A stretch of 64,000 nucleotides of DNA, taken from Proteromonas lacertae (lineage: Eukaryota). The position numbers and the translations under genes are program-made. Positions 6,488-29,458 of the stretch are shown piece after piece (position 1 is the first letter of the stretch; every line of letters starts with the position of its first letter). The DNA lies in NCBI GenBank assembly GCA_002245135.1, contig NGBS01000591.1, forward strand, positions 62,001-126,000, given 5' to 3'. The notes beneath the pieces were generated by a model. That model did not search any database. It saw only the letters and a program-made list of their open reading frames with translations, and had not been told where the DNA came from.

Positions 6488-8160
6488 TTATTCATCCTGA
6501 AATTCAATTTCTTCTTCTCTTCCAATTGCTTTTCTAATTCTTCATCATATCCTTCAATCACTATCATTGCATCATCACTCATTCCGTAATATTCTAAATT
6601 CTTTTCCACATCATCAATCGGACTTAACATCATCTCATCTTTTACTTCATAGATAATGGTAAAGTTTTACTTATTCTTTGATCTCAGAAATTTCTTGAGA
6701 TCTCGATTTCTGAGTAGCAAATGGAATCATTTAAAAGTTGAGGATAATTCTTTACCACATTATTCTTAAATTCAGCTGAACAATTTACCCATTCATTGTA
6801 ATCTTTAAAGTTGTTTTCCTCCATTATATCAGTTATCCATTCTATGTACTCGTCTTATGTCACTTCCATTTAGTCTAGTTAATGTTGGAATTCGAGCGAT
6901 TATTTCTGGACGATATATCTCTGGACAAAAATCTTTTGTTAATGGAGTTTCTTTTAAACGTAAAGTTTTTTGTTGACAATTTACTTATATTACTGTTATG
7001 ACAATTTACTATTTCTACTGTTGTAAAAATTGGTAATTCTCTATATATATATTTTTTAATAATATACTCATTAATATCTCCTAATGGATTATATCCAAAT
7101 AATAATACTTCTAATTTTGGTAATTTGATTATTTCATTGAAATTATTCCATTTATCAATATCATTATGACATAAGTCAAATACTCGTAAATGACTAAATA
7201 CACCTTTAGGGATTCCAGAAGATAATTCTTTTATATGATTTCCTACTAAATATAATTCCATTAATTTTGGTAAATAAGGAGAAATTGTTACTATATTACA
7301 CCATAATACTTTGGTATATGATAATATTAAATCCTATTTATATTATTATAATTGTATAATGTTTATATTTATATATTAATACAGTTAAGTGATTAAAGGC
7401 ATTTTCCATTATTGATTTCATTGGTAATGTTTTTGTATTATTATTTTCATCACTTTCAGTTGTAGTTGGAGCTGGTGGAATATTTGATTCAGTTGTTATT
7501 GTTGTTGATGATGATGAAGTTGATAAGGCTGATTCAGTTAAAGCATGACCAATTTTAGATACATCATTCCATTCTATAAATATAAATAATTTAAATAATA
7601 CATACTAAAATCAAATTTTCATGAATATCTACTCTTTGAAGATTCTTAGCCATTACAGATAATACTTTTTCATCACCTATTTCACTCACACACTCATTGG
7701 GAGTTGAAGCTACCTAAATTTGATCTAATTTTTGATATTCTCTAGAGTATTACATTATTATCATTATTATAGAATAAATATATTATCTTTTTACCTCCTA
7801 CTAGTTTTGCCTCTACCGATTTACCCTTTTCAGTCTCTACAAACATATCTTCACCAACTCCACCCATTTCATCCTCTCATACTCTTGGGAGTATCTGTCT
7901 TGTAATGCCTGAATCAATGTCTTTCCAGTTTCTAACATCTTTGGTTTGACAAATGAGCCCATTTTCTCACCACATGTGAAATATCTTATCACATTTCCAT
8001 CAGAATCAGTAACTGAACCATCATACTTCCCTCTTCCTTCTAGATCTTACTCAACACCTATGAATGATTGGTCTTGATCCTTTGATATGCAAACAGGACC
8101 AATGTACCTTACAGTGCCTTTTATTTTGACATTTTCTTTATCTGCAACACGTTGTCCAAA
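6488..8160 (-). pseudogene. TBCE: Tubulin-folding cofactor E (CAP-Gly + LRR + UBL), disrupted
   Basis: Hand translation gives GQRVADKE..KGTVRYIGPV..FIGVE*DLEGRGKYDGSV (CAP-Gly, with TAA at the conserved Trp). LRRs lie in 6875-7261 and a UBL-like tail (NLEYYGMSDDAMIVIE) ends the gene. It has further in-frame stops and no clear start codon. Confidence 0.75.
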
Positions 8161-8403
8161 TAATAATGAATAATAAAGGGAAATGAGTACAGTTTGAAAC
8201 CCCTATTTTTTGGGGTTTTTGTATTCGAAACCCTATATGGTTTTTTTATTCGTTACTTTTTGTTTTCGAAAATATAGTCGTTATGCTTCAAATCTAATTT
8301 GCAAAAAATACTCAATTATGTTATTATGCATTGAAAACATCACCAATCATTTTTTTATTATGCATATACACACCCCCAACACATAGATAATTGATTGAGT
8401 TGA

Positions 8404-8790
8404 TTAGTCAAAAACATTAGATCTAATGATTAGTGATTCTTCTTCAGCTTCTTTAATGACTTCACTCAGTCTATTTCTGTAGAACTCTATTTTCGGTGGA
8501 TTGACTGATGAAGGGAAATTGTAGTATATATTTATACATTGACCTACTACATTTTGATGCTTGAAAATATCATCAACAAGGAATGTATGGAGCTTACTTC
8601 TGACTGCTGCTGTCTGGTCTCCATAAAATTTCATTACATCATGCCATTTGCAACCATTATCTCTAATGAACTCCAATTCTCTCTGAAATGTTAATCTTCC
8701 TTTTCTATTATTGTAAATGGCTGAATGATTGATCGAATGTCTCTTACTTTCTTAATTAGGTCTGGGACAACTATCATCTTAAAATCACTA
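8404..8790 (-). other. 3' fragment of an unknown intronless ORF abutting the virus-like gene
   Basis: 90-aa ORF with coding-like sequence continuing upstream across a frameshift to about 8790. No family recognised. Confidence 0.3.
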
Positions 8791-10269
8791 TAGTTTTTGC
8801 CATTGATGGCATAGCTTTTGATAATTCACTAATACCTTTAACTGCAGCAGCAGTTGTTGCATCACCTCCATTTGCAGCTGCAGCTACAGTTGCTGCTGTT
8901 TTTAATGTATCACCTACATTTTTTGCATCTATATTTCCAATATTAGAAAATTTGTAGAAGAATGGAACTAATTGAAATAAGTATCGAACATATGGATGAG
9001 TATTGAACATAAATGAAACACCAAAGTTATACAACAAGTCTACAGGTAACATTGATTTAACTTTTTCTGAATTACCATAATACAAGTCAGTGATAGCAGG
9101 TAATCTACCACCTGACAGCATACGAATTATTTCATAGTAGTCGAAAATGAAGTACCACATTACATACAAGAACCCTGATGTTGGTAGTTTAGATTTTTTC
9201 CATAACCAATAAGCCAAACATGTCATTACTATTGCACGAACATATATCATTGCATGATCTACTTCAAACATTTGAGGAGTAACTCCACCTACCAAATATG
9301 ACTTCATTGTATAGTATATTTGTGGAAATATCCTAAATACATTCTCTACACACAGGAACAAATTACCAGCAAAACCCATAAAATCAGATTCACGTAATGA
9401 ATCGAGTGCTTTTTGAAATTGTGAATTTTCAAATTGTGCCCATGAACTACAAGCAGTTTTCACTAAACCAATAGCTATTTCATATTTTTGTTTATTATCT
9501 GCATTCACCCACTCTTGAGGAAGTGAGTGACCTAACTTCTCTCTGTTATAATCAAAGTTAATGAAATCTCTACTATTCTGTGATGCTATTTCATTCAGTT
9601 CTCTATATTTATCTTCATTAATCCATGTATGCGGTTCTTTATCTATATCTATAGCACTATTCACCAGTTCTTGATTTTTTGGATCTAATGCCCATCTATA
9701 AAATTTTGATCTTTCTAATATCTCTTGATCATCCATATATCTTTGTGCCTTTTGATTATTCATTGCAATATATTCTTTTACTTTTTCAGCTCGATTCGGA
9801 TCAAAATTATATGGATCTGAATATTGATTGATCTTACTTACTCCATCAACTAATTCATTCTGCAAATACTCCTGCTGTAATAATAGTTTGTTATAATATT
9901 CTATTGCATCTTTATCATTACCTGTTAATTTATCCCAAGTTGAGGTCAACCAATCTTGTCTATAATTTTTATAGGCTGCTAATTGAGGATTCTTTTCTAT
10001 AATCTCTTGTAATGATTTATAATTTTGTAATTTAGGAAATTTTTGTAACAAAGGATATGTAACTCTATTCATTCCATTATCATATGCCTGAACATCTGCT
10101 TCTGTAACATATTCAGGCCAATTCAAAAGATAGCTTCTTGGATTAGATGTATCTAATTCTGCTAATGGATATGTTCCTCTTAAATGTCCTGTTTTATGTT
10201 CACGATCTAGCATATCATAAAAATTAATATGATAATTGTTAGGCAACATTGAAGCATAATTATCTGTAA
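8774..10269 (-). CDS. Virus-like structural/core polyprotein paralog A, 3' part
   Basis: 491-aa intronless ORF sharing identical blocks with the ORFs at 14972-16634 (LLLQQEYLQNEL, ASQNSRDFINFDYNREK, YYEIIRMLSGGRLPAITDLYYGNS). Homology extends upstream to about 10269. Confidence 0.55.
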
Positions 10270-10808
10270 TGTTGGTGGGATGAGAGTAAAGAGAAATTAA
10301 TTCAAAGATTAGGTATTTCTGATGTAGATGAGACTGTGCGCATTACACCTAATATGTTCCTTGAGTGTGTTAACAAGATTAAGGAGAAAAGAAACCCATC
10401 TTTTGAAAAAAACTCATCAATTATTAGAAAGTATTATTATGATGAATCATGAAGCTAATATATTACCTCCTCCTCCTCCTAATGATAATAGTAATAAAGA
10501 AATAGAAGAAATACAAGTCAAGCTTGAAAATGACAATGACAATGTCAATCTCACAGATTATGACTTATCTCCAATATCACCAAGATCCATTAAGGATGAA
10601 TATATTAATAATAACCAATGTCTTGTAAGTTAGTTTATTGATAATAAATACATTACTTTGATTAATTTTGTTTTCTTATATAAGATTCTCATAAACACAC
10701 ATGGACTTTGATGTAATAACTGTTTTGCTTTCAGTTCTCGTATTTGTATTGTATATGATAGCTTTGGCTCTTTTCAAATACTTAAAGGCACACAATTGTA
10801 TTCCAAAC

Positions 10809-11894
10809 CAGGGTTGTATAAATCGGTCATGACCGACGGAGAAAACCGATCGGTCGTAGGTCAATAAATAAATGTTGACCGACACCAGGCTGTAGTAACT
10901 ATTAGCTGACCTCCTCCTAAACATGTGATATTAATAATATTATCTAACTGTACATATTGAATTCAAGCTCTATATATCATTCTATAAAATACCCAATTAA
11001 CCGTCGGTCGATGTGCTTTTTTCTTTCTTCATAATTGAATCTAACCTTACCAATGAGTTATTCTATTGTGTTATATATGTAATATAAAGTATAGAATGAT
11101 TATAAAAATTTGAAAGAAAAAATGGCAAACTTTTAGCTTGACATTAATCATTTCTTAAAATTATCATAAATGTATCTAATATAATCTATCATTATATATT
11201 CTAGGAGTATAGTTTTACCAATTGGAGCGGCTCGTGAAGTTATTGCCTTAAAAGAGGCAAATATGCTTAAACATCTTAATTTTAACTTTTACAAAACCTT
11301 TTGGTATAATATGTTAAAGATAAAAAGCCTTGATAAATGCATTTGCAGTAAAAAGAAAGAGATTAATTATGCCAAATGAAGTACAAGAATATTTTCAATA
11401 TGATATTCATTACAGCACCTCTGAAACCATTGGAAATATCTGGCTATCATTAAAGTCCAAGTTTCCTAGGGTATACATACTTGCCAATAACAGTTTAAAC
11501 AGTCTAGCAACATCTTCAGAGCCAGAAAGAATATTTTCAGAGGCTGGACAAATAAGTAACTTATCCAAATCAAATTTATCATGTGATAGATTACAAATGA
11601 AACTGATGATTAGTAGAAATAAATAAGAACATAATTATATAAAATACCTAATTATTGTTGAGTATTAAATTGTAATTCTTTATAAAAAGTTAAAAATTAT
11701 TTAATTGAATTGAAAATATATGAATCAAGTATTAAAATATATTATAAGATAGTTTTTATGAAGGGAAAATTAGTATATAATGAATTAAAATAGATTTTAT
11801 AATATACGGCTTGTATGGCTTGACCGACCGACGGTCAAGGCAAAACCTATAGGTTTTGACCTATCTCCGTCGGTAACAGATAAATACAACCCTG
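10809..11894 (+). mobile_element. Non-autonomous hAT DNA transposon derivative
   Basis: TIR CAGGGTTGTAT at 10809 and ATACAACCCTG ending at 11894; GACCGAC/CGGTC subterminal repeats at both ends; internal hAT dimerisation-domain remnant. No matching 8-bp TSD. Confidence 0.8.
11330..11626 (+). pseudogene. hAT transposase C-terminal dimerisation domain fragment
   Basis: WLSLKSKFPRVYILANNSLNSLATSSEPERIFSEAGQI matches the W...FP.L...A...L..PATS...ER.FS.AG consensus. Confidence 0.85.
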
Positions 11895-11912
11895 TATAAT
11901 ACCACTATTACA

Positions 11913-12377
11913 ACCTAATTTCTTAGTAGCCAAGAGATGCCTCCGTGGGATACTCTCTAATTTTAGTTTATTTCTTCTGTGATGTTTCTTATGATTGAAA
12001 TGAACATGTTTTCTTCTACCTGAACCTGTCTTTGGATATCCATCTAAAGACATACCAAATAAACCATAATTTACTTTTGGCCATAAATGATATTCACTAC
12101 CCATACCATTAATTAAATTACACACATCTGATCGTGCTTCTGGAACACTACGACCACATTGATATTTGAAATAATGTAAGTAATCTACTAATTGATCTAT
12201 TGTTCCTCCATAGCTGGAATACTTTGATATAATATCTAATGGCAATCCTACATTTTTACATACATTTTCTAAATCTTGTTTTGTATTATTCATAACCATT
12301 TGCTTAACTGATTCATAATCATATTGATTAATCAAAAATGGTTGTATTTTTTCCATAATAGCATCTACATTATATCT

Positions 12378-12414
<37 letters not shown>

Positions 12415-13790
12415 ATTGGTTGTGTGTTATTTTGCAATGTTGGCTGGGCTGCTGCCGCCGGGGCGCAGCAGCACCTGCCATCATTCCGGCGTAGTTTGCA
12501 ACATTTGAACTTTGATTATTATAACCTGCACCAGTTGCAGGTATTGAAGTTGTAACATTAGAACTGGGGGCAGTTGTAGTACTATTAGTTGTATTATTAG
12601 AACTGGCCCCAGTTGTAACATTCGATGCTTGAATATTTGAAGTGGCCGGCGCACTCGTCGAATTTGTTGTTGCAGGAGTAGCACCAAATATACCTCTGAA
12701 CCAATTGTATATATTACTTAGTGATGTAGTAAAGAAACCCATTATACTATCTAACTTAAAATGAATCCATTGTGACATATCCATTGGAGGAACTTGTTTC
12801 CAACGATTATATACCAAACTGACAAAATTAGGAGTTAACATTGACACAAAAGATGCTGCATTAACCCATGCTGGGGATAAACCAAATATCCATTGCATAA
12901 CACCACTATATCCTATTCCTGCATTTACTAAATACTTTAATATTGCACCAACAGTATTATCAGGAAATAGTATTTCAAACACTTGTGAAATAGAACCTAA
13001 TGTCATAGTACATAAGCAGAACTTCACACCAAATTTCAACCAATTGTATGTTGTATTACCTGAGAAATATTTATCAATTTTTGAAATTAATGATTGTTTT
13101 TTTCTTTCTTCCATTGTTGCTATCTTTCTCTGATATTCTTCATTCCTTGCTTTCACTATTTCATTTTCTTGTTGTAATTTATACTCGTGATCTTTTTGTG
13201 TTGTACCAGCATTATTATTCCATCTTGGATTGGATTGATATGAATTTACATTGTACTGTGATCCCCATTGTTGTAATGGTTTTCCTTCAATTTGAGATAA
13301 AAATGGATTTTGCCATTGATATGTTAAATTCTCTGGTTGAGCATAATAATCTGAGTATGGCTTGTTATACTTACCTATGTTCCTATAATATCGTCCAAAC
13401 TGGTCTGTGATGCCTGACATATATAATTTGTATTTCATCTCATCAGTCATAAAATTGTTTTTTGTTGCGTTTATATTTGGATTAACAGGCTTTGATAATT
13501 CCTCTATATCATCATCCTCATCTCCTATAGTATCATAAAATTTATTGAAACTAGATTTAGGATCATAGACGTCTAATCCATATGTACCATTCATTGCCTT
13601 TGTCAACATTGGCTGTTGGGTTAGCCATGTGACTGAGATCTAGTTTTATTTTCTTGTTATCTTTCACTTTGTTATAGATGATCTTTTTCAATTTTCTCTT
13701 AAGTGCATTATGATACACAGAAGGATTCTCAAAATCAATTGCTTCTTCTTTTGGTGATGATTGTTGCTTATGCTTTCGTTTAACAACCAT
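11913..13790 (-). pseudogene. 5' part of virus-like polyprotein paralog A (three overlapping ORFs joined by frameshifts)
   Basis: ORFs 13563-13790, 12365-13609 and 11847-12437 overlap consecutively. The last reads KHVHFNHKKHHRRNKLKLESIPRRHLLATKKLG, homologous to KHVHF..HRKHNRKSKL*LKSIPHRHCLATNVLG upstream of ORF 14972. Also TM segments, a Thr/Ser/Asn-rich linker and poly-Q. Confidence 0.55.
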
Positions 13791-13868
13791 AAAATATATA
13801 AAACAATATAAAAAAAAAGAGAAACAATACTATTAGAAATATAGCCGTTATTGATATTATAGATGATA

Positions 13869-14195
13869 TTAACTCTTCTTTCGTTCTACAGATTGCCATC
13901 CATCATCATCAAAATCAGATTCAAATTCATCATCTTCTTGTTCTTGTTTTTGTTCTTGTTGTTGTTCTTCTTCTTCAAAATCAGATTTGAATTCATCATC
14001 ATCATCATCATCATCATTTTTAGGATTGTTTGCTTCTCTCCAATCCTCTCTTATTTTCTTTTGTTCTTCTGGTGTTATATATTGCATTATCTTATCAAGT
14101 TCATCTTTTGTTAATTCTGAAATATCATGTTTAATATCAGTAAATGGCTGTACTTTAATATCTGTTTCTGCTTTAGGAGTAATCAATTTATTCAA
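13869..14195 (-). CDS. Small acidic protein of the virus-like cassette
   Basis: 108-aa intronless ORF with a D/E/Q-rich tail and a repeated DDEF(K/E)SDF motif. Confidence 0.45.
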   Translation of the reverse strand: MNKLITPKAETDIKVQPFTDIKHDISELTKDELDKIMQYITPEEQKKIREDWREANNPKNDDDDDDDEFKSDFEEEEQQQEQKQEQEDDEFESDFDDDGWQSVERKKS

Positions 14196-14227
14196 CTTCT
14201 ACTATTATATATAAATTAACATGAATT

Positions 14228-14761
14228 TTATACCATTTGTTGCATTTGTGACATCTTGATTTGGTTAATTGGATTACTCATATATTCACCCATCTGCATC
14301 CTAGTCTTTGCACTTGCTTGAGCCATTTCATTGTAATTAGGTCTATTCATATTCACATACATGTTAGGACCAAACAAATGCTGATCATCAATCTCTCTTA
14401 AACTATTAGCAAGTGGTATAGCCATTGCATTACCTTCATGTAATGATGTGGATAACATAGAATCGATTGCATTCTGTCTCTCTAAAAATTTTTGCTCATC
14501 ATTCAATTTACGAATATCACTTTCATTAGGAAGAGTGTCTTTAGAATTCAACTTAGTAATCTCATCTTTTATTTCTTTTAAACGACTGTTTCTCATATCC
14601 ACTAAATCTTTTGCATTCTCTCTATAAAAATTATTATATAAACGCTGATAATATTTGTCATGTCCTTTATACCCTTCACCTCTCCGTATCTTCTTCCTTT
14701 TGCCTTTGCCTCTCATCCGAGCAAACACAGCAAGTAGTATTTTCTTATTCAGTTTTTTCAT
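14228..14761 (-). CDS. Basic-N-terminus protein, putative virion core/DNA-binding protein
   Basis: 177-aa intronless ORF with RMRGKGKRKKIRRGEGYKG (GxG motifs inside a basic tract). Confidence 0.5.
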   Translation of the reverse strand: MKKLNKKILLAVFARMRGKGKRKKIRRGEGYKGHDKYYQRLYNNFYRENAKDLVDMRNSRLKEIKDEITKLNSKDTLPNESDIRKLNDEQKFLERQNAIDSMLSTSLHEGNAMAIPLANSLREIDDQHLFGPNMYVNMNRPNYNEMAQASAKTRMQMGEYMSNPINQIKMSQMQQMV

Positions 14762-14809
14762 AATAACTTAATAGAAAATAAAAAGAAACAATTTAATTAT
14801 CATATATAA

Positions 14810-16759
14810 CTGAATTAGGTAATGATCCAAATAGTGTAATTGATGAACTACCTAAGAAAGGATTCTTTGGTTATGGAAGATAACATAAAAAACATGTTCA
14901 TTTTCAAAAAACATAGAAAACATAATAGGAAGAGTAAATTGTAATTAAAATCAATTCCACATAGGCATTGTTTGGCTACTAACGTTTTAGGAGGTGTTGT
15001 ACAACTAAATATGGGAACAACAGTAAAACTTAATGAACACTTTGTTGTTCCCAATCCAAGACAAAGTGTAGATGAAGGTAAAATACCAATCTATATACCA
15101 ACTCAATTACCAACTAATGTACAACGATATATACCAGAACAGCCTGTTGGATACAATTATAATTGGAATTATAATAAATTGTTTGGACCTGGTTTAAGTA
15201 GACAAGCTAGAAGAGAGATTCAATATCTAATCACAAATAACTATGCTCAACACTTATCTAATAATTGTCACATTGATTTATATGATATGAGAGATCCAGC
15301 ACATAAGAAAGGTAATTTAAGAGGTACTCCAGCATTAGCTCAATTAGATACATCAATGCCAAGAGAATATATTTTAAATTGGCCTAAAGGTGTTACAGAA
15401 CAAGATGATATGGCATATGATAATGGAGTGAATAAAATAACAGATGATTTATATAAAAGATTTCCTCAATTACATGGTTATAAGTCGTTACAGCAAGCAA
15501 TTGAAATGAATCCTGAACTACAAGCATACAAAAACTATAAAAATAATATATTATCTAAAGGATGGGACTATATTATGGGAAATAATAAGGAAATGAATGA
15601 ATATTATAATAAGCTATTACTGCAACAAGAGTACTTGCAAAATGAATTAGCAGATGGTGTTAGTAAAATACATACTTATTCTGATCCATCTAATCTCGAT
15701 GCTGAAAAAGTTAAAGAATATATTGCATTAAATAGTCAAAAAATGGGTAGAGTAATGAATGATGATCAAATAAAAGACCAATCACTCTTTTTTAAATTTG
15801 CTACTGAGAATCCAGACATTATGTCAAAAGTTCCAGATATAGGTCAAGGTGAATGTTCACCAATAAATGAAGATTATTATAGAATGCTTAATGAAGTAGC
15901 TTCACAAAATAGTAGAGATTTCATTAATTTTGATTATAATAGAGAGAAATTTGCTCATGAACTTCCTGAAGATTGGATGGCAGCTTCTAATCCAGAAAAA
16001 GTATCGATAGCATTTGGTTTGCTGAAAACAGCATGTTCATCATGGGCAAAATTTGAAAATTCACAATTTCAGAAGGTATCGGACTCTTTGAAGGAAACTG
16101 ATTAACAGGTTTTGTAAGTAACTTATTGTTGTGTGTAGAAAATTTGTTTAGGATATTTCCTCAGATATATTATACATTCAAAGATTATTTAGTTGGTGGA
16201 GTGACTCTTCAAATGTTTGAAGTAGATCATGTAATGAAATATGTACGTACAATATTACTTTCATGTTTGGCTTTTGGTTATGGAAGAAGGCAAAGTTGCC
16301 AATGACAGCCTTTCTGTATGTAATGTGGTACTTCGTGTATGATTATTACGAAATTATTCGTATGTTGTCAGGTGGTCGTTTACCTGCTATCACTGACTTA
16401 TATTATGGTAATTCAGATAAAGAGAAGGCTATATTACCAAAAGCATTACAAAACTCTTGGTTACCGATAGATTTAATTTATAATTTTGGTGCATCATTTT
16501 TGTTCAATAAACATCCCTATATCAGACATTTGTTTCAAGCAGTGCCATTTTTGTTTAGGTTTACTGGTATGTCACCTCCTAATTTAAGTAATGATAGTTC
16601 AGGATCGATATTGAAAGCTGCTTCAGAAGTGTAGCAACAGTGATAACAGCACTTACTGAAGCCAGAAGGACATAAACATAAGAATAGAATGCAATTTCCA
16701 ACTACGTTCCAAAACAACAACAATCAATTCCAAGTTCATTCACTAATTTTGGTAGAGCA
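14810..16759 (+). pseudogene. Virus-like polyprotein paralog B (frameshifted, 5'-truncated)
   Basis: ORFs 14972-16105 and 16263-16634 plus the intervening frame (TGFVSNLLLCVENLFRIFPQIYYTFKDYLVGGVT) align collinearly with the 491-aa paralog A. There are stops and frameshifts at about 14880-14945, 16105, 16262 and 16630. Confidence 0.6.
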
Positions 16760-17248
16760 ATGAGTAACTTAGATCAATTAAAACAAGTTAATCAAGCTTT
16801 AAATTGGTTTCAAAGAGGTAATGGAAATAATAAAAAAGTAAAGAAATTAATTTCACGTAGGAAGATTTTATATAACAATATCACTTCAGATGCCTTATCG
16901 AACTTTGATATAGAGTTAATTGTGAAAAATGAGTTCAATAATTTTCACGGAAAGTTCATGGGAGTGTTCTGCTGGGACGAGCTTGTACTTCCTACACCCA
17001 AAAAGAAGAATCAATGGGGAATCATAATCAATACACTCACCACACAAGCTAGCCCTGATTCTATAGGTCATTGGGTGGCCTTAGTAGTTGACAATATCAA
17101 GAAGCAATTCCTGTACTATGATTCATTTGGTGAAGATCCTCAACACTTAGAAAAATTCAAAAAAAGTTTGAAAAAATTAAAGAAGTATCATAATGAAAAG
17201 TATGAACTTAAAATCAATGGAGTACAGAACCAAAATTCAAATACTACC
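16760..17248 (+). pseudogene. Adenain/Polinton-virophage-type cysteine protease (clan CE), 5' part, interrupted by the Ginger insertion
   Basis: Motifs FMGVF, IIINT, GHWVALVVD, YYDSFG and VQNQNSNTT. The catalytic Cys lies beyond the insertion. Confidence 0.85.
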
Positions 17249-17351
17249 TGTTGTTCCCCGTTGAGTACAACTCCCCGTTGAGCGATTAGAAACTTTAGAA
17301 ACAAACTAATTATATAATGTTATTACTCATAATGAGTTATGAAGGGATATA
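17249..17351 (+). repeat. Left TIR of the Ginger element
   Basis: TGTTGTTCCCCGTTGAGTACAACTCCCCGTTGAGCGAT... is the reverse complement of 27323-27425 and contains two direct copies of TCCCCGTTGAG. Confidence 0.95.
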
Positions 17352-18383
17352 ATGTTACCTTGTCATATAAGCTACTTTTGTGAGTAAAAAAATAGTGTCA
17401 TAATATTGAGAAAAAACTACATAAATGAGTGTTAGAATTAATTTATATTTCATATTTTATGTTTTTATTTTAATATGATGTCTAAATAAAAAGTGACAAA
17501 ATTTAAGGATTTAAGAATTATACCCCTTCTGACGTCAGTGTTTTCACACAAACTTTCTCAAACTACATTCATTTCATTTTTTTGATTTTAAAACTATTAA
17601 AATAGTTAATATTATTGTAATTTAAATAATTAGCATAAATGGATTTTTATCATACAAAATTTGCTGTTTTTATATCACCAATATAGATATAAACAAAAAA
17701 TGTGTAATTGTGGAAATATATTTATAGAAAAAGTGTCTTTTTATTTACTATAATATATATAATGAGTGTATAATGAGTATAGTTAATATATTGTATCAGA
17801 TCTTAAAATCACTTGCAAATCAGAATACACTCTTTTGTTTTCTTAATACAAATTAAATAATGTTTATTATTTTATATAAAATACAGCTAATTAACCAAAT
17901 CACACTTCTCGCATTACATTCTTATACATTCAACTCTTCTGGACTTATGAAACATATACCATTTATTTTTATATGCTTTTCTTTTCTAAGTGTTTATTAA
18001 TATGTTTTTCATACAACTTAAAAAACTATTGTAAAACAAAGAAAATAACACAAACCTCAAGCCTATGATAATATTTGAATTTTGATATCAAAAATGTAAG
18101 TGTTATATATATATATATTATTATTATTATATTATTATATATTATATATTATTTATCAATTTATTTATATATATATATATTTTGCGTTAAAGGTAGATAT
18201 AGATGAATATAGTCATTGGTAAGAAGAATGAATATTATGTATAGTTAGTAAAATATTTTTCTCAATTTGGTAGTCAATCATTATATTCATTTATCGATAA
18301 TTATGATAAAGAAATTTTTAATGCTCATTTGGAAACTGTTTTGGAATTGTATGTATATATTTTGTTATAATTGTTGTTTATAG

Positions 18384-19500
18384 ATAAAAGGTGATAATGC
18401 GAATAGAATGAAGATGAACATAAAGTTGAATCCTCTAATACTAAAGAAGATGAGATAAGTCAATTGAAAGAAGAGTTGAATGAAATGAAGAAAGAAAAGA
18501 ACGAATTAGAAAGTCAATTGAAAGAGATGAAAGAAGAATCTAAACCATATACTGATGAAATTGAATCATCAAATAGTTAAAAAAAGAATAAAGAATAAAT
18601 AGAGAAAGAGTTGAATGAATTGAAAAATAAAATCAAAGATAATAATAAGATAGAAAATGATGTAATTTACAAAAGTGAAAAACTTGGAATAAGTGAAATA
18701 GAAGAAATAGAAAATGAATTGAAAGAAGAATGAGATAAATCTAATCAATAGAATGTAGAATTACAGAAGAACAAAGATGAATTAGAGAAAGAAATAACTC
18801 AATTAAAAGAACATCAATCTAAATCTCAGAATGAATTAGAGAATGAATTAAATGGATTGAAAGAACAACTAGATAAATCCAAAGAAGAGAAAGAAGAAAT
18901 GAAAAAGAACAAAAAAGATTTAGAGAATGAGTTGAAGAAAATGAATGATGAAGTAATAAAATGTTAAACCATTTTAAGATAATTCAAGTATTTATTTTAT
19001 TCCCATAATCAGTACTTCAGTTTAGTTATATCAACATGATGACATGATAATGAAGAAATGATTGAATAAGTGGGTAATGATCCTGAAGTGTTAGCTTTTA
19101 TTGGAACTTCTACTAATGAAGAAAGATAAGCAATTCATCCATATTTGTCAGAATATAATAAATAATTATTCTCATTTTATGTTGTAGAAGTTTAAAAAAG
19201 TTTACAAGAATGTAATACAGTTTGGAAGAATGCCTCATCATTATATGATTAAAGTATTTAATTATCACTATATTAATAGAAGATTATAATATAACATTGA
19301 ATAATGAGAATGGTATAATAAGTGGATTTCCAACTAATGAATTGAATAATATGTTGAGAATAAAAATAACAGGTAATAATGATAAAGAAGGAATAGAAAT
19401 AGAAAATTCAGTTATTAAACACATTCAGTTGCAAACCTATCTCACATATTATGAAACAAAATATATATTTTGTAAGTGAAGAAGATAAGAAAAAATATAG
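18384..19500 (+). pseudogene. Degenerate host-like gene fragment (K/E-rich coiled coil + Ig-like remnant) carried inside the Ginger element
   Basis: Long E/K-rich coding-like tract with several in-frame stops. LNNENGIISGFPT resembles the IDKESGIIHGKVN Ig-like motif in the host gene at 3478-4536. Confidence 0.5.
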
Positions 19501-19786
19501 AATAGAATAATATGAAGGCAAATGAAATTGACAGATAAAACAAAAGGAGTGTTTGTAAGAATAAATGTGAATAAGTGTATTTAGATAATGTATTACTTTA
19601 GGTGATTTTACATTAGTTGGTATGAATTTATTGTTTTTTGAGGTTTTATTTCAGCAATACATAATTAGAATTCAATGATTTATATAAAAAATAACAGTAA
19701 AAACATTAGCTATATATATTTATTACTATAACTATATATATACATATAATTCTCATTTATTTCATAATATATATCATAATATATAG

Positions 19787-22700
19787 GTTTTCTGAAGTAT
19801 TACACCTTGATCAAGTACTTGAGGACGATCACAAACCTCTTTATTATCAAGCACTTGATAAGTTGTTTAAAGAAAAAGCCTCTTCCAGCGGCGATAAAAA
19901 GAGAAAAGAACACAGAAGAAGTCATTCTGTAGGTATCGAAAAGAGAAAGAAAGGAAACAAAAGAAGCCGTTCTACTAGTAGTAATGAAGTAGAAGAAGAT
20001 AATTATCGTTGTAGAAGCTTTACCAAAAAGAAATACGATGATTATGTAAAAGATATAAACTTCTATTCCAACAAAGGTTATTCTTACGATGAAGAGACAA
20101 AGCAGTTATTGTTTAAAGGAAAGAAGGTTATTAAAATTGAAGAATCGTTTGATGTACTAAAAGAATTACACGAAGGTAATGGTCACATTACAATTGAACC
20201 TTTGTATTACTTGGTAAATGAAAAGAAGTACTATGGTATTACCAGAGAAATGGTAGATGTATTCGTAAAAACATGTTCTGGATGTAAAGAATTGAAGAAA
20301 GTTCATGTTGAACAACCGTTAAAACCGATACTATCAAGCTATCCACGCGAAAGAGTGTTATGCGATCTAATTAATATGAGTAAAATCAATGAGAAATTTA
20401 CAGTTACTGAAGAAGAACAGTTTAATTACATTCTTACAGTGATTGATCATTACAGTAATTTTACAATTATATATCCATTAAAGAGAAAAACAAAAGAAGA
20501 AACAGTGAAGAATATGCGAAATTATATCAGAATTTTTGGTGCTCCTCAGATTCTTCAAATGGATAATGGTACTGAATTCAAGAATGATTTGATGAGAAGT
20601 TTATGCAATGAATATGGAATTGAAGAAGTTCATAGTGCACCATATAGGCCTCAAACGAATGGAAAGGTAGAAAGGTACAATCGAGTTGTGAAAAACACTT
20701 TAAAAGGATTTATGATGTCGAATAAAGGCATTTATTGGACTGAATTTGTTGATAAAATTATTGAAACAATAAACAATCACAAGTGCAGAAGAACACATTC
20801 TAAGCCTAGATCTTTATTCTATATGGATATTGAACAATTAAAGAAGGAAAACCCAAAGTTATTTATAAAAGAAAATGGCGAAGAAGATGGTGATAATGGT
20901 GGTAATAATGGTACAGTTGATGGTGATGATGATGGTAATGTTTGTCATGATGAATTATGTGATTGTTCTAAAGAAGATGATAAAGAATATTTTAATGATG
21001 ATGAATACGATGAAGTTGAAGTAATAGAAATAGCAAAAGAAAAATATGATGAGAAGAAAAACATAGAAAACATCAGAAAAGATATTTTGAAAAATGAACA
21101 TAAACTCCAACAAGTAAAAGATTACATTAATAAAAGAAGAGATGAATACAATGATAAAATGCATGATGAATCAGAAAAAAAGCTGAAGAAAACTATTATC
21201 AATCCTAAACATGGTGATATAATTGTCTATACCGACAAGAAGAAGAATTACGCAGATAACAACAAGAAAGGAATAATTAAAGAAGATAAAAAAACTAAAG
21301 ATTTATATGGATTGTATACTATTAATATTTAAATTAATATAATTATATAGGATTGATGACCAAGCAATTAAACTTACTACATCTTCAGCATTTACAATAA
21401 TACCTGTTACAAAAGAAGTAAATGAAAAAATGAAAAGAAAAGCTGATGAATTATATGTATTATAAAGTTTATTATTATTATATAATAGATGAATCCTCAA
21501 TCAAAGAAAAGACTATTAGATCCTGATTATAAGAAACAATTACATGAAATAGTTCATAGGCCAAAGTTAAATGCAGTCTATGGAACTATAGCTATAGGAG
21601 CAATTGATATTAAATTAGATTCATCATCACCATTAGAAGAAAGTCGATTAGAATATGTTAAATCTGTTAGAAATAAAATTGGAACAATGCAGTTGGATAT
21701 TATAGATGTAAGATTTATATTGGATTTATATACTTATGGAAGTCAATTTGATCTATTATTAGAGAATGATGAATGTTTAGGTACTTATATAACAACTAAA
21801 AATAGGGATATTTATATAATTAAGTCGGATAGTAGGTATTATACAACGTATCAGACATTAGTAAAAGGTATAAAGTATATTCATGTCATTGACTCATCTA
21901 ATAAAGGTAATTATAAAACAGATTTAGAGAAACTCAGAATTAAAGTTGGTAAAGATAAAGATCAATTCAGATTATTAGTTGATAAGGTGGAAACAAATCA
22001 TCCAGAAGCTACAGATATAGTTTCATTGGTAGTATTTATGATGAAATGTAAGGGTGCAAATATTATTAGTGTTGACACAAGGTTATTAGGAGATTTGTTT
22101 AAAGAATATATAGATACATTAATCAATACCAATTCATGTTTATTGAACTTGGCATTTTTTAAATCATATTGTTCAAAAATATCAACATCATCAATTACTT
22201 ATGAAGAAGAACAAGAAAGCCATGGTTTAAGCTTTGTAAAAAAGATAAGAAAAGTATTTCAGTATGATGATAAGATTGTTTGTTACAAAGGTAAAGAAAG
22301 GGCTGGAAACATCAGTAAATGTGAAAAATTAATATGTGATATGAATACTAATTATGAGTTAAATACAGACGAGTTCACACTTCTACTACATTTCATCAAC
22401 AATGACAATAGTGATGTTATAGATCCATTGGTACTATATCAGAGTGAAGCTCCCAATCACCCCATTCATCATAGTGGTACTTATTTCATTCCAGTATGCA
22501 GAGAACATCATTGGACAGTATGGGAGGTGGAATATGTAAAGAATGAATCAATTACATGTTATATCCATGATTCAATGAAAGAATATACTCATGACTCTCA
22601 AGATAGAAGGTATTTATACTCTGATATTACATCATTATTTGACACAGAAAACATCGATATCTCTTATAAATGCAGTAAAATAATACCATTAGATTATGAG

Positions 22701-22934
22701 TTAAAGAACTTAAAACAAAAAGGTGATAAGAGCTGCGGTTATTTTGCATTGTTCTTTTTAGGTATAAGAAAGATGAATATGGAAATTGAAGATGTGGAAC
22801 ATATAGAATCTTTCAATATATCGTACTTTATAATGGATTTAAAAAGGGTTTTAGCATCATTGGATAATAATGATAAAGCAAAGTTATATTGGTATAAAAA
22901 GCATAAACCATCATTCTATAAATTCAAATGCTAA
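19787..22934 (+). CDS. Ginger transposase: HHCC zinc finger + rve DDE integrase fused by splicing to an unknown domain and a Ulp1/C48-like protease
   Basis: LHEGNGH...CSGC; catalytic LCD, QMDNGTEF and NGKVERYN. GT-AG introns at 21314-21350 and 21457-21488 join ORF 19863 in frame to ORF 21489, which has HHWTVW, YIHDSM and KQKGDKSCGYFAL. The first exon was not located; an acceptor AG lies at 19785-19786. Confidence 0.88.
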
Positions 22935-23044
22935 CATCTATATTAATTAATTATAATAATGTTTTATTGTAACTTGTTTGTTTTACAAATTTAACTTTTA
23001 AATAACAAATAATTAAAAGTATATAAATTCATATTCACTATTCC

Positions 23045-26000
23045 TATTAAGATTAAAATATGTGTATGTAATACACATACTATAATACATCTATCTATAT
23101 ATTAATATCAAAAATTACTCAAAATTTGACTGAATCTAGTTTCAGATTCAGTCAAATTTTAAGTAATTTTTGATATTAATATATATTTATATACAATTAA
23201 TAGTATCTAACATATACAGAGAGTATCAAGTTAATACTGTGTGTCTGTACTCAACAGGGAGAAAAGAGTAAATTTCATCCCATTGAGTACAGACAAACAG
23301 TATTAAGCTTATAGTATGTGTATGTAATACACATACTATAATACATCTATCTATATATTAATATCAAAAATTACTCAAAATTTGACTGAATCTAGTTTCA
23401 GATTCAGTCAAATTTTAAGTAATTTTTGATATTAATATATATTTATATACAATTAATAGTATCTAACATATACAGAGAGTATCAAGTTAATACTGTGTGT
23501 CTGTACTCAACAGGGAGAAAAGAGTAAATTTCATCCCATTGAGTACAGACAAACAGTATTAAGCTTATAATATGTGTATGTAATACACATACTATAATAC
23601 ATCTATCTATATATTAATATCAAAAATTACTCAAAATTTGACTGAATCTAGTTTCAGATTCAGTCAAATTTTAAGTAATTTTTGATATTAATATATATTT
23701 ATATACAATTAATAGTATCTAACATATACAGAGAGTATCAAGTTAATACTGTGTGTCTGTACTCAACAGGGAGAAAAGAGTAAATTTCATCCCATTGAGT
23801 ACAGACAAACAGTATTAAGCTTATAATATGTGTATGTAATACACATACTATAATACATCTATCTATATATTAATATCAAAAATTACTCAAAATTTGACTG
23901 AATCTAGTTTCAGATTCAGTCAAATTTTAAGTAATTTTTGATATTAATATATATTTATATACAATTAATAGTATCTAACATATACAGAGAGTATCAAGTT
24001 AATACTGTGTGTCTGTACTCAACAGGGAGAAAAGAGTAAATTTCATCCCATTGAGTACAGACAAACAGTATTAAGCTTATAATATGTGTATGTAATACAC
24101 ATACTATAATACATCTATCTATATATTAATATCAAAAATTACTCAAAATTTGACTGAATCTAGTTTCAGATTCAGTCAAATTTTAAGTAATTTTTGATAT
24201 TAATATATATTTATATACAATTAATAGTATCTAACATATACAGAGAGTATCAAGTTAATACTGTGTGTCTGTACTCAACAGGGAGAAAAGAGTAAATTTC
24301 ATCCCATTGAGTACAGACAAACAGTATTAAGCTTATAGTATGTGTATGTAATACACATACTATAATACATCTATCTATATATTAATATCAAAAATTACTC
24401 AAAATTTGACTGAATCTAGTTTCAGATTCAGTCAAATTTTAAGTAATTTTTGATATTAATATATATTTATATACAATTAATAGTATCTAACATATACAGA
24501 GAGTATCAAGTTAATACTGTGTGTCTGTACTCAACAGGGAGAAAAGAGTAAATTTCATCCCATTGAGTACAGACAAACAGTATTAAGCTTATAATATGTG
24601 TATGTAATACACATACTATAATACATCTATCTATATATTAATATCAAAAATTACTCAAAATTTGACTGAATCTAGTTTCAGATTCAGTCAAATTTTAAGT
24701 AATTTTTGATATTAATATATATTTATATACAATTAATAGTATCTAACATATACAGAGAGTATCAAGTTAATACTGTGTGTCTGTACTCAACAGGGAGAAA
24801 AGAGTAAATTTCATCCCATTGAGTACAGACAAACAGTATTAAGCTTATAGTATGTGTATGTAATACACATACTATAATACATCTATCTATATATTAATAT
24901 CAAAAATTACTCAAAATTTGACTGAATCTAGTTTCAGATTCAGTCAAATTTTAAGTAATTTTTGATATTAATATATATTTATATACAATTAATAGTATCT
25001 AACATATACAGAGAGTATCAAGTTAATACTGTGTGTCTGTACTCAACAGGGAGAAAAGAGTAAATTTCATCCCATTGAGTACAGACAAACAGTATTAAGC
25101 TTATAATATGTGTATGTAATACACATACTATAATACATCTATCTATATATTAATATCAAAAATTACTCAAAATTTGACTGAATCTAGTTTCAGATTCAGT
25201 CAAATTTTAAGTAATTTTTGATATTAATATATATTTATATACAATTAATAGTATCTAACATATACAGAGAGTATCAAGTTAATACTGTGTGTCTGTACTC
25301 AACAGGGAGAAAAGAGTAAATTTCATCCCATTGAGTACAGACAAACAGTATTAAGCTTATAGTATGTGTATGTAATACACATACTATAATACATCTATCT
25401 ATATATTAATATCAAAAATTACTCAAAATTTGACTGAATCTAGTTTCAGATTCAGTCAAATTTTAAGTAATTTTTGATATTAATATATATTTATATACAA
25501 TTAATAGTATCTAACATATACAGAGAGTATCAAGTTAATACTGTGTGTCTGTACTCAACAGGGAGAAAAGAGTAAATTTCATCCCATTGAGTACAGACAA
25601 ACAGTATTAAGCTTATAATATGTGTATGTAATACACATACTATAATACATCTATCTATATATTAATATCAAAAATTACTCAAAATTTGACTGAATCTAGT
25701 TTCAGATTCAGTCAAATTTTAAGTAATTTTTGATATTAATATATATTTATATACAATTAATAGTATCTAACATATACAGAGAGTATCAAGTTAATACTGT
25801 GTGTCTGTACTCAACAGGGAGAAAAGAGTAAATTTCATCCCATTGAGTACAGACAAACAGTATTAAGCTTATAATATGTGTATGTAATACACATACTATA
25901 ATACATCTATCTATATATTAATATCAAAAATTACTCAAAATTTGACTGAATCTAGTTTCAGATTCAGTCAAATTTTAAGTAATTTTTGATATTAATATAT

Positions 26001-27042
26001 ATTTATATACAATTAATAGTATCTAACATATACAGAGAGTATCAAGTTAATACTGTGTGTCTGTACTCAACAGGGAGAAAAGAGTAAATTTCATCCCATT
26101 GAGTACAGACAAACAGTATTAAGCTTATAATATGTGTATGTAATACACATACTATAATACATCTATCTATATATTAATATCAAAAATTACTCAAAATTTG
26201 ACTGAATCTAGTTTCAGATTCAGTCAAATTTTAAGTAATTTTTGATATTAATATATATTTATATACAATTAATAGTATCTAACATATACAGAGAGTATCA
26301 AGTTAATACTGTGTGTCTGTACTCAACAGGGAGAAAAGAGTAAATTTCATCCCATTGAGTACAGACAAACAGTATTAAGCTTATAGTATGTGTATGTAAT
26401 ACACATACTATAATACATCTATCTATATATTAATATCAAAAATTACTCAAAATTTGACTGAATCTAGTTTCAGATTCAGTCAAATTTTAAGTAATTTTTG
26501 ATATTAATATATATTTATATACAATTAATAGTATCTAACATATACAGAGAGTATCAAGTTAATACTGTGTGTCTGTACTCAACAGGGAGAAAAGAGTAAA
26601 TTTCATCCCATTGAGTACAGACAAACAGTATTAAGCTTATAATATGTGTATGTAATACACATACTATAATACATCTATCTATATATTAATATCAAAAATT
26701 ACTCAAAATTTGACTGAATCTAGTTTCAGATTCAGTCAAATTTTAAGTAATTTTTGATATTAATATATATTTATATACAATTAATAGTATCTAACATATA
26801 CAGAGAGTATCAAGTTAATACTGTGTGTCTGTACTCAACAGGGAGAAAAGAGTAAATTTCATCCCATTGAGTACAGACAAACAGTATTAAGCTTATAGTA
26901 TGTGTATGTAATACACATACTATAATACATCTATCTATATATTAATATCAAAAATTACTCAAAATTTGACTGAATCTAGTTTCAGATTCAGTCAAATTTT
27001 AAGTAATTTTTGATATTAATATATATTTATATACAATTAATA
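23045..27042. repeat. Tandem array of ~15.6 copies of a 256-bp multi-hairpin unit
   Basis: ATTAATATCAAAAATTACTC recurs at 23101, 23357, ..., 24381 and 26941 (period 256). Units appear identical except at one A/G site. Confidence 0.97.
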
Positions 27043-27322
27043 ATTAAGTTTAATATTTTTAATTACGAAAAAATTTAAAAAGATGTACAAAAATATAAAC
27101 AATTACATATGAAATTAACGATAAAAAAATAATTAAGGGGGTAAAAAAATTCAGGATTTACAACACATTTTTTTGTTTATCTCATCATCCAATTGAAAAT
27201 TTTTGAAAATAATTTATATTATTAATAAGCATAATATGTACATATATAATATGAAATAAAAGTGAACTAGTTGGTGTAATAGATGATATCGCGACATGTT
27301 GTATATGTTATATGACCACCTA

Positions 27323-27425
27323 TATATCCCTTCATAACTCATTATGTGTAATAACATTAAGTAGTTAGTTTGTTTCTAAAGTCTCTTATCGCTCAACGGG
27401 GAGTTGTACTCAACGGGGAACAACA
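27323..27425 (-). repeat. Right TIR of the Ginger element
   Basis: Ends ...GCTCAACGGGGAGTTGTACTCAACGGGGAACAACA and is followed by the TSD CTACC. Confidence 0.95.
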
Positions 27426-27430
27426 CTACC

Positions 27431-27568
27431 AACTGCGGTTTTTTTGCTATTAATTTTTTGAAAAATATTTTAAGAGATCAGTGTAATTTCAAAAAGGCTA
27501 CTGACTATAATACAATAGTGGGTGAAGCAAAAATTAGGTTAATGAAAAAACAATTTGGATTAATATAA
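27431..27568 (+). pseudogene. Adenain-type protease, 3' part carrying the catalytic Cys
   Basis: Removing the element and one TSD restores the frame ...QNSNTT-NCGFFAINFLKNILRDQCNFKKATDYNTIVGEAKIRLMKKQFGLI*. Confidence 0.88.
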
Positions 27569-28497
27569 AAAGAAATATTCGTTTTATTTTTTGGTGTTAT
27601 TCTATTGATTTATCATTTTTTCTAATTCTGGGTCTTTGTAATATTTTTCTGAACCAAGTATCTCGTGCTTCATCTTTTTTCGCTAGCTGCAGCTTATAGT
27701 GCTTAAAATGAATAAGTGAAAAATCTGGTATCTCTCTGCCATCTTGATCTCCAAAACAATACGAATATCATTTTACGTCTTCGCTCCTTAAATCTCACCA
27801 AGTCACCAACTTCGAAATTTTGGTCATTTTTTTCAAGTTTTTCAAAATTTTTCAAATTATAGTTTATTGACTTCATTATTTAAAAAAATAAACCTTCATC
27901 CAAACAAAAACATCTCATTATTAACCAGTTTAGTATTGCGTATTTTCTGTAACCTAACTGCATACTAAAATCAAATAATCTAAATCAAATATACCAGTTT
28001 GAATGATTGATTTAGATAATATACCTTGTAAAATGCGAGAAAATTCTATCATATCAAAGTAATAATGAAACATTGCTAGTATTGCTAATAACTTCTTCTT
28101 TTCTGCATTCTATAATATAATTGTTGATGTTGGTAATATATAGACTACTTCAAAGCATGATTCACTGAAATATTAATCATGGGATCTACCTTGTAACATT
28201 TGACCATAAAAATTATTAATAGAGGTAATTGTACAAAAATAACAACCATAAACAATAATTCATTTTTCACAGTATTATAATTTGTTACATAAACCACTAC
28301 TATACATTTCCAACACACATTCTACTCTTTATTACTTAGATTAATATTTATTTATCCAATGTTCATTTAAATGAACTATATGCTCAGATAAAAATATGTA
28401 TATATGAATTAAACTAAATTTAATTAATAAATAGTAAGAAATTTAAATAAAAATGCAAAAAAGAAAAAACAACTAAATGTTTGAATAACAAGCTCGT

Positions 28498-28787
28498 AAG
28501 GGGGTAAAAATATTCAGGAATAGAATTTTATTTTTGTTAATATCTTCATAATATAATAGAATTGGTATAAAATATTTTATATATGAAATGAGTATAATTC
28601 ATACATACATTTTATATAGTAAAATTTAATATGATAGTCTATTTGTTGATATTAACATGTCTAGTATACATTATAAAACTAAACATATATTTGAACATAA
28701 CTCATCTTCAACATCATAAATATGATATTAGTTTTGAAAAAGTCTTCTTAACGCCCAACGGCGCATTTAGCTCAACGGCGCACAACA
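28498..28787 (+). mobile_element. Orphan right end of a second, diverged Ginger-family element
   Basis: GCCCAACGGCGCATTTAGCTCAACGGCGCACAACA mirrors the first element's right terminus. AAGGGGGTAAAAA.ATTCAGGA lies 289 bp inside this end versus 290 bp in the first element. Confidence 0.7.
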
Positions 28788-29114
28788 AAATAGTTTTAAT
28801 ATTTGTGGCATTTGTATTCTAGAAATTTTTGAAGCAAACTAAATGCATATTTAGCTAATATAGACTAAAATACATTAGCTGAAATGATTAGAACAACTTA
28901 ATGTTGATCATAAGACATTTAAAATGAAAAAAGAAAATATAGAATCAAGCCTCACTCAAGCCTATATTCTACATTTTTTTTATATAGAAAGATTTAATAA
29001 TTATTATATTCTAATCATTTCAGCTAATGTATTTTAGTCTATATTAGCTAAATATGCATTTAGTTTGCCGCAAAAATTTCTAGAAAACAAACGGCGCAAA
29101 TATTTAAACTATTT
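28788..29114. mobile_element. MITE-like/foldback element with ~106-bp inverted arms
   Basis: 28788-28893 is the reverse complement of 29009-29114 with about 7 mismatches, around a ~115-bp non-coding spacer. Confidence 0.7.
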
Positions 29115-29367: not shown

Positions 29368-29458
29368 ATCTAATTTTTGATATTCTCTAGAGTATTACAT
29401 TATTATCATTATTATAGAATAAATACATTATATTTTAACCTCCTAATAGTATTACCTC
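29368..29458 (+). repeat. ~90-bp direct copy of an internal TBCE segment (7723-7813)
   Basis: ATCTAATTTTTGATATTCTCTAGAGTATTACATTATTATCATTATTATAGAATAAATA is shared exactly, followed by near-identity. Confidence 0.8.

Follow-up and report, generated by a model that had tools for sequence, protein, structure and literature searches.

A transposon resembling Ginger2/Tdd elements (T1) carries a tandem array of a 256-bp unit in which two copies of the core of its own TIR face each other across a hairpin. This inverted pair, already described in the initial annotation, occurs in 15 hairpins at 256-bp steps, and so comprises 30 sites. The geometry of the unit, its sequence match to the TIR, the decay of the cores and the homogeneity of the units are direct observations. 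From these we favour, with modest confidence, the reading that the unit is a decayed non-autonomous foldback mini-element of the T1 family that was amplified head to tail within its parent and is probably neutral. Coordinates are collected in Table 1.

Table 1 Features of T1, its array and the adjoining related sequences, in window coordinates.
Feature	Position	Strand	Details
TSD, left copy	17244..17248		CTACC, 5 bp
T1, Ginger2/Tdd-like DNA transposon	17249..27425	+	10,177 bp; TGTTG...CAACA ends
Left TIR	17249..17370	+	11-bp repeats at 17255-17265 and 17272-17282
Integrase-type transposase ORF	19863..21332	+	H2C2 zinc finger; D168, D234, E270
Predicted GT-AG introns	21314-21350, 21457-21488	+	37 nt and 32 nt; flank linker exon
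ORF with Ulp1/C48-like catalytic motifs	21489..22934	+	HW 341, HDS 360, QKGDKSCG 410
Tandem array	23045..27042	.	15.6 x 256 bp, 99% matches; both borders inside a unit
First H3 hairpin	23231..23306	.	Axis between 23268 and 23269, taken as the junction of adjacent mini-element units
Right-end-type TIR core copy, TGTACTCAACAGGGA	23246..23260	-	14/15; CpG to TG
Left-end-type TIR core copy	23277..23291	+	12/15 ungapped; CpG to CA; TCCCATTGAGTACA is 23278-23291
Junction-to-junction unit	23269..23524	.	256-bp foldback, X·revcomp(X'); H2 axis between 23396 and 23397
H2 hairpin, foldback centre	23352..23441	.	41/43 positions complementary; first copy 23096-23185
Right TIR	27308..27425	-	11-bp repeats at 27392-27402 and 27409-27419
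TSD, right copy	27426..27430		CTACC, 5 bp
T2 orphan right end	28394..28787	-	67% to 27023-27425; repeats GCGCCGTTGAG / GCGCCGTTGGG
FB2 foldback	28788..29114	.	327 bp; adjoins T2 end; 115-bp arms, 90% complementary

The host element and its surroundings

The window (the whole 64-kb stretch of DNA that was analysed) is AT-rich, with a GC content of 20–34%, and its host genes include a lipoyl synthase, a kinase and a GH47 enzyme. The lipoyl synthase reaches ~60–64% to named stramenopile matches, including Blastocystis, which is not above its level in other eukaryotes. Low GC together with predicted introns of 32–37 nt is compatible with a low-GC, Blastocystis-like protist (PMC12129017).

T1 splits a C48/adenain-like protease ORF (Pfam C48 E 1.2e-5; C5 E 0.026). 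Excising the element and one CTACC in silico brings this protease back in frame, which fixes the bounds of T1. Its two TIRs are 89% identical over 122 columns and identical in their first 38 bp. As the initial annotation stated, TCCCCGTTGAG is duplicated within each TIR, starting at 17255 and 17272 on the left and at 27392 and 27409 on the right. The 17-bp period of this 11-mer pair is common to the T1 ends and the end of a related family, T2, and the duplicated 11-mer is a putative transposase-binding site.

The region that T1 entered (8400–17248 and 27431–28393) contains, along with the adenain/C48-like protease, several ORFs without a Pfam match, and our impression is that it resembles an endogenous Polinton/virus-like element, with no hallmark gene confirmed. 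Two inverted paralogous ORFs in this region (8958–10270 and 15230–16552) are 72% identical. A hAT dimerisation-domain fragment (11324–11626, E 3e-7) lies within 10800–11900, with ACCGAC/GTCGGT-like motifs clustered on both sides of it, and this stretch is probably a small hAT insertion. The entire mobile region is flanked by a 91-bp direct repeat (7723–7813 and 29368–29458, 93%), the left copy of which is within a CAP-Gly/LRR gene (TBCE-like by eye) that carries an in-frame stop near 8050. Within T1 itself, a coiled-coil-like frame upstream of the transposase (18400–18970) has internal repeats and several in-frame stops and may be read as decayed cargo or as upstream exons, and an interior segment of 133 bp (17861–17993) is 75% identical to a distant host region (57992–58124).

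Coding content and superfamily assignment

The transposase matches rve (E 2e-14), has D35E spacing (35 residues from D234 to E270) and lacks a GPY/F motif. Predicted splicing across 21314–21488 would place transposase and protease in a single open frame of 1000 codons, and the linker exon weakly matches the C terminus of one homolog (P0004, E 0.008). The HW, HDS and QKGDKSCG motifs of the downstream ORF we take to be Ulp1/C48 catalytic motifs; the ORF matched no Pfam family at the cut-off, C48 included. Four close protein homologs (42–59%) come from short contigs, and among 25 long matches that were scanned, RT/RNase H was present in 4 and integrase domains alone in 21. No named Ginger2 reference was among the protein matches.

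The superfamily was assigned provisionally from described features. Ginger2/Tdd elements have TGTNR termini, TIRs of ~45–300 bp and a TSD of 4 bp (metazoan elements) or 5 bp (TDD-4/5) (PMC2836005). T1 fits this group and would be nearest to TDD-4/5 through its 5-bp TSD (CTACC; one insertion only): TGTTG stands at both ends, the TIR falls within the size range, H2C2 and DDE motifs are present, GPY/F and YPYY are absent and no RT domain was found in the ORFs scanned. The CTACC target, again from a single insertion, departs from the AT-rich RTATAY preference of the group. T1 departs from Ginger1 in the absence of GPY/F and YPYY and in a TSD other than the 4-bp CCGG/CCGT. From IS481EU, whose members lack the HHCC motif and have TIRs mostly <50 bp (PMC10045372), it departs in the H2C2 motif and the 122-bp TIR.

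One Ginger1 trait, a C-terminal Ulp1/OTU domain, has a candidate counterpart in T1 in the form of catalytic-like motifs and a fusion by two predicted introns, with Pfam C48 unmatched. The predicted fusion of transposase and Ulp1-like domain would put a domain layout of Ginger1 type on an element of Ginger2/Tdd type.

Two signals were discarded. A sigma-70 promoter scan (8 against 5.9 expected) is irrelevant in a eukaryote, and a Blastocystis-type 3′ motif at 22975 was set aside because it has only 9 occurrences in the window and shows no enrichment in low-GC isolates (PMC12129017).

Architecture of the 256-bp unit

The array begins 111 bp past the stop codon of the transposase–protease gene. 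Its 15 units differ at one polymorphic position, an irregular two-state site (GAAAGAGAGAAAGAG), which shows that the expansion is recent. The H2 and H3 axes are exactly 128 bp (half a period) apart without a gap, the arms of the unit are complementary at 93 of 128 positions (73%, ungapped), and even the non-hairpin middle is complementary at 23 of 44 positions, a level that 29 of 5000 shuffles reached. It follows that the unit is one inverted duplication, a single palindrome and not three independent hairpins.

In H3 the two motifs point tip to tip, each 8 nt from the axis against 6 nt in the true TIR end. The virtual spacer between them is thus 4 bp ungapped, or 5 bp with one gap if the 3′ arm has lost a base; the TSD is 5 bp. 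Read from axis to axis, the unit bears a core of the left type at its left end and one of the right type at the other, and H3 is accordingly a right-end/left-end junction. Since both borders of the array fall within a unit, it preserves no mini-element end that faces outward. Neither mini-element ends nor a TSD were found at the array borders, and no dispersed copies of the unit were found elsewhere in the window.

As RNA, the unit is predicted to fold with very high stability (−103.9 kcal/mol, z −15.7). Together with the short distance of the array from the gene's stop codon, this would suit the hairpin RNAs that the initial annotation had suggested, with a role in silencing or guiding at the ends of the element; we consider this highly improbable. 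Any palindrome folds in this way, and the unit does so as DNA too (z −16.7). It is complementary to the element ends over 15 nt, mismatches included, a short stretch for a silencing guide. G–T-type mismatches (plus versus minus strand) number 2 versus 2 in H3, 1 versus 2 in H2 and 2 versus 5 in the middle, a slight lean to the minus strand over 14 positions with no clear strand preference in the stems. Rfam returned 13 generic hairpin matches for the unit, all far below the gathering score.

Internal copies of the TIR core

Both cores correspond to TIR positions 7–21. The match of TGTACTCAACAGGGA to the right TIR (27405–27419, 14 of 15 positions) stands as first described. The second arm, TCCCATTGAGTACA, is present as claimed, and its match to the left TIR is poorer than had been stated, with 12 of 15 positions ungapped and 14 of 15 only if a one-base deletion is allowed. 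The match further includes TACA (TIR 18–21), which follows the outer TIR repeat only and lies outside the duplicated motif. The inclusion of TACA is expected from the copying of a terminus.

None of 5000 dinucleotide-shuffled units and none of 207 window tiles outside T1 matched the first 38 TIR bases at 14/15. When the target was enlarged to 103 TIR bases, 131 of 5000 shuffles reached 14/15, so the significance depends on the terminal repeat being what is matched. The 15 copies of the unit count as one evolutionary observation, not 15. On this basis the presence of TIR cores in the array is confirmed as real and non-random. It is quite improbable that the match is coincidental, which the shuffles and tiles speak against, or that the copy number is an artefact of assembly or amplification. 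Near-perfect repeats of a strong hairpin do assemble poorly, but arms that are 73% complementary are unlike artefactual fold-backs, the irregular two-state site suggests real units, and an artefact could change the unit count, not the motif.

Past TIR position 21, the half-unit does not resemble the TIR interior (799–1000 of 1000 shuffles score equally), and its homology to the TIR interiors, to the sequence upstream of T2 and to the FB2 foldback is not significant. Miniature elements usually lack similarity to the interior of the parent TIR. A MITE is short and non-coding, with inverted ends matching the terminal sequence of an autonomous partner; the unit is a short, non-coding foldback with TIR 7–21 at both ends. 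It is at most a decayed MITE, because each arm retains only 2 of 6 tip positions and the array borders fall inside a unit.

The same stretch past the core bears on another origin for H3, as the fossil right-end/left-end junction of an excised circle or of an end-targeted insertion in copy-out/paste-in style, made by this or a sister family, with amplification proposed to have followed by rolling circle or unequal exchange. A 4-bp spacer would also suit retroviral-type two-base end extensions. This origin is improbable: the sequence past the core is unrelated to either the T1 or the T2 TIR, so H3 is not a junction of full-length T1, and the second axis (H2) would require a foldback mini-element anyway. 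Among the readings raised in the initial annotation, an amplified end-to-end junction or mini-element is best supported, by the palindromic unit, the facing motifs, the 4–5 bp virtual spacer and TACA.

A related family and its foldback

T2 is represented in the window by an orphan right end, and its left end was not found there. Homology between T2 and T1 starts within 20 bp of the T1 array end (28394 against 27023), where the last H2 arm ends; since it stops where the array ends, the T2 counterpart of the array position is unreadable. The T1 sequence to the left of the array aligned with the T2 upstream sequence no better than 37 of 300 shuffles.

The foldback that adjoins the T2 end, FB2, has a 9-bp exact T2-type core in its right arm (29090–29098) and a CpG-decayed copy in its left arm. 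Shuffles equalled the match of the array unit to T1 in 0 of 1000 trials and to T2 in 136 of 1000, while FB2 gave 5 of 1000 against T2 and 219 of 1000 against T1. A co-variation of TIR and internal motif, proposed earlier as a check, is thus visible to the extent that the unit matches T1 and not T2 and FB2 matches T2 and not T1, in two cases of which FB2 was chosen after the fact and lies outside T2. The FB2 motif sits 17 nt from the FB2 ends, FB2 has no detectable homology to the unit (179 of 500 shuffles), and no TSD was seen around it. Such family specificity is compatible both with family-specific mini-elements and with selected sites.

Two further candidates here were rejected. Reading the T2 remnant and FB2 as a circular permutation of the T1 array-plus-end layout found no supporting homology, and an integrase remnant suspected by eye at 27640–28390 was unsupported (E 0.78).

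Decay or selection on the cores

The internal sites lack the cleavage end, as had been noted. Across both arms 26 of 30 core positions are kept against 4 of 12 tip positions (2 of 6 on each arm; Fisher P 0.0013, with boundaries set after the fact), and the match begins exactly where the duplicated TIR motif begins. In both arms TTTC replaces TTGT, and the shared change implies that the source terminus was already unlike that of T1.

Both internal copies are also mutated at the core CpG, a point missing from the initial annotation: neither of the two retains CCGTTG, which is invariant in all six true TIR repeats of the T1 and T2 families. At this CpG one arm now reads TG and the other CA, as the two possible CpG transitions would give, and the CpG observed/expected ratio of the window is 0.36. 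The ancestor therefore had the exact TIR core, and the internal copies have been under weaker constraint than the ends. Arm-to-arm pairing is kept at 14 of 15 stem positions outside the TIR motif and at 11 of 15 within it, and the better-kept non-TIR stem points to hairpin homogenisation. If an arm were neutral and as diverged as the middle (JC 0.76), it would keep 14 of 15 positions with P ~0.04, and the 12 of 15 of the other arm with P 0.30, values that assume that the middle divergence of the arms dates the unit.

A core kept over the tips, and a match that starts with the duplicated motif, would fit selection on a binding site and to that extent count against the mini-element reading. So do the P of ~0.04 for the better-kept arm, the TTTC change shared by both arms, the lack of similarity past TIR position 21, and the failure to find mini-element ends or a TSD at the array borders or dispersed copies of the unit in the window. 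The cores could be under selection as internal, non-cleavable transposase sites, either loading transposase for synapsis or acting as a sink that damps transposition; we hold this possible, if unlikely. The array would then present 30 weak putative sites 0.55–4.2 kb from the right end, and a mini-element origin may still apply. The confinement of the match to TIR 7–21 with the tips lost agrees with this account, but both copies break CCGTTG, and tip loss would also be expected of a relic, since a parent with internal ends that can still be cut would fall apart. The family specificity of the unit (for T1) and FB2 (for T2) agrees with the account of selected sites too, yet would be no less expected if every family gives rise to mini-elements of its own, and the FB2 case is further loosened by its place outside T2, the distance of its motif from its ends and its lack of detectable homology to the unit. 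Precedents exist in the piggyBat inhibitory site (PMC11707139) and the Tetris/Galileo repeats (PMC4079207), although the array is one-sided, unlike the latter, which lie within TIRs. Finally, double-strand binding needs no palindrome. The evidence favours descent as the origin, with present function possible either way.

A broader scheme would have each Ginger-like family of this lineage keep its own foldback, the ends of which co-evolve with the TIR core, the tip shed and the core weakened. The result would be a copy-number-tunable array of facing uncuttable sites, a transposase rheostat or landing pad and a fossil of end-to-end junction chemistry from an integrase-type DNA transposon of a eukaryote. 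We regard this scheme as doubtful. If the landing pad were real, the T2 end that lies flush against a T2-type foldback would be a landing-pad product.

Proposed origin of the array

For the decayed mini-element that we favour, we infer the historical steps below, as we do the lack of function. A foldback of MITE size, which matched the family TIR over only its first 21 bases or so, would have formed a head-to-tail dimer, in which double insertion would leave a TSD-sized spacer (4 bp ungapped and 5 bp gapped as seen). Mutation of the cleavage tips and of the core CpG would have allowed the junction to persist without harm between two live TIRs, while hairpin-templated correction would keep the arms complementary near both axes. 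Very recently, unequal exchange or slippage would have copied one junction-containing unit ~15 times. The 30 sites would then be worn ends, with transposase binding, if any, weak and incidental.

As a relic, the array would offer a snapshot of a satellite arising from the junction of mini-elements, within a parent transposon that looks intact and belongs to a little-known superfamily and lineage. Should the sites have kept their binding, the array would provide a natural dosage series (0–30 sites) for asking whether internal repeats enhance or restrain transposition, an effect left open for most arrays (PMC11707139). The 4–5 bp junction geometry also opens a way into how Ginger elements are excised, a chemistry that is unstudied.

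No related DNA turned up in viral contigs for any of four queries (transposase, transposase alignment, protease ORF and H3 arm pattern), and 66 single 14-mer matches there lacked extended similarity. The 80 metagenome loci kept of 480 hold distant integrases (21–50% over short stretches), and this kind of array was absent among the repeats listed for loci of at least 3 kb. A degenerate TIR pattern gave 120 matches in prokaryote genomes (80 listed), all single and taken as chance.

Comparison with known systems

T1 is most like TDD-4 and TDD-5 of Dictyostelium, with which it has in common TGTNR termini, the TIR range, a 5-bp TSD and H2C2 and DDE motifs without GPY/F (PMC2836005). At 10.2 kb it is longer than any Ginger2/Tdd member listed in the available text of that source, its predicted C-terminal Ulp1-like domain is a trait of Ginger1, and that text makes no mention of an internal palindromic array for known members. 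A non-autonomous element close to the unit in size, the 252-bp Ginger2-1N1_NV, appears in Table 2 of the same paper (PMC2836005).

The Tetris and Galileo repeats resemble the array in being ~220-bp AT-rich tandem units that have a short stretch in common with the terminus (37 bp between the Tetris TIR-220 repeats and the terminal domain) and that expand inside a DNA transposon; they are proposed to be extra binding sites, and internal repeats with such sites are cited for Galileo (PMC4079207). A second account of Galileo places the repeats within TIRs, with binding sites unmentioned in its available text (PMC4168063). Those repeats are direct and lie within TIRs, whereas the T1 unit is palindromic, with two facing cores, and stands on one side, outside the TIR. 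For the sink reading the model is the piggyBat subterminal site, an uncuttable internal TIR-like site that restricts activity; it is a lone site in the terminal 160 bp, established by footprint and deletion (PMC11707139), whereas the T1 sites are candidates recognised by sequence.

Arrays of P, hobo and Bari1 share with the T1 array a right-end/left-end junction with a TSD-sized spacer, the expansion of one junction and frequent junction damage, and tandem P and hobo dimers with such spacers expand to 13–19 copies (PMC5932611). They consist of whole elements at a chromosomal site, whereas in T1 a mini-unit with replaced tips is nested in its presumed parent. TIR–TIR junctions are also known in copy-out/paste-in elements (PMC7780238). 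Tandem repeats derived from MITEs have been reviewed (PMC12628747) and tabulated (PMC6947457); among them Xstir, miDNA4 and Angel are, like the presumed source of the T1 unit, foldback miniature elements that gave rise to arrays via hairpin-mediated or unequal-exchange routes, but they belong to other superfamilies and their arrays are mostly of internal MITE sequence, not junction-to-junction (PMC12628747). Our literature search, which lay outside Repbase, subscription journals and supplements, found no such array in a Ginger element. Nor did it list the combination seen in T1, a palindromic junction-to-junction unit amplified one-sidedly in a Ginger-like element.
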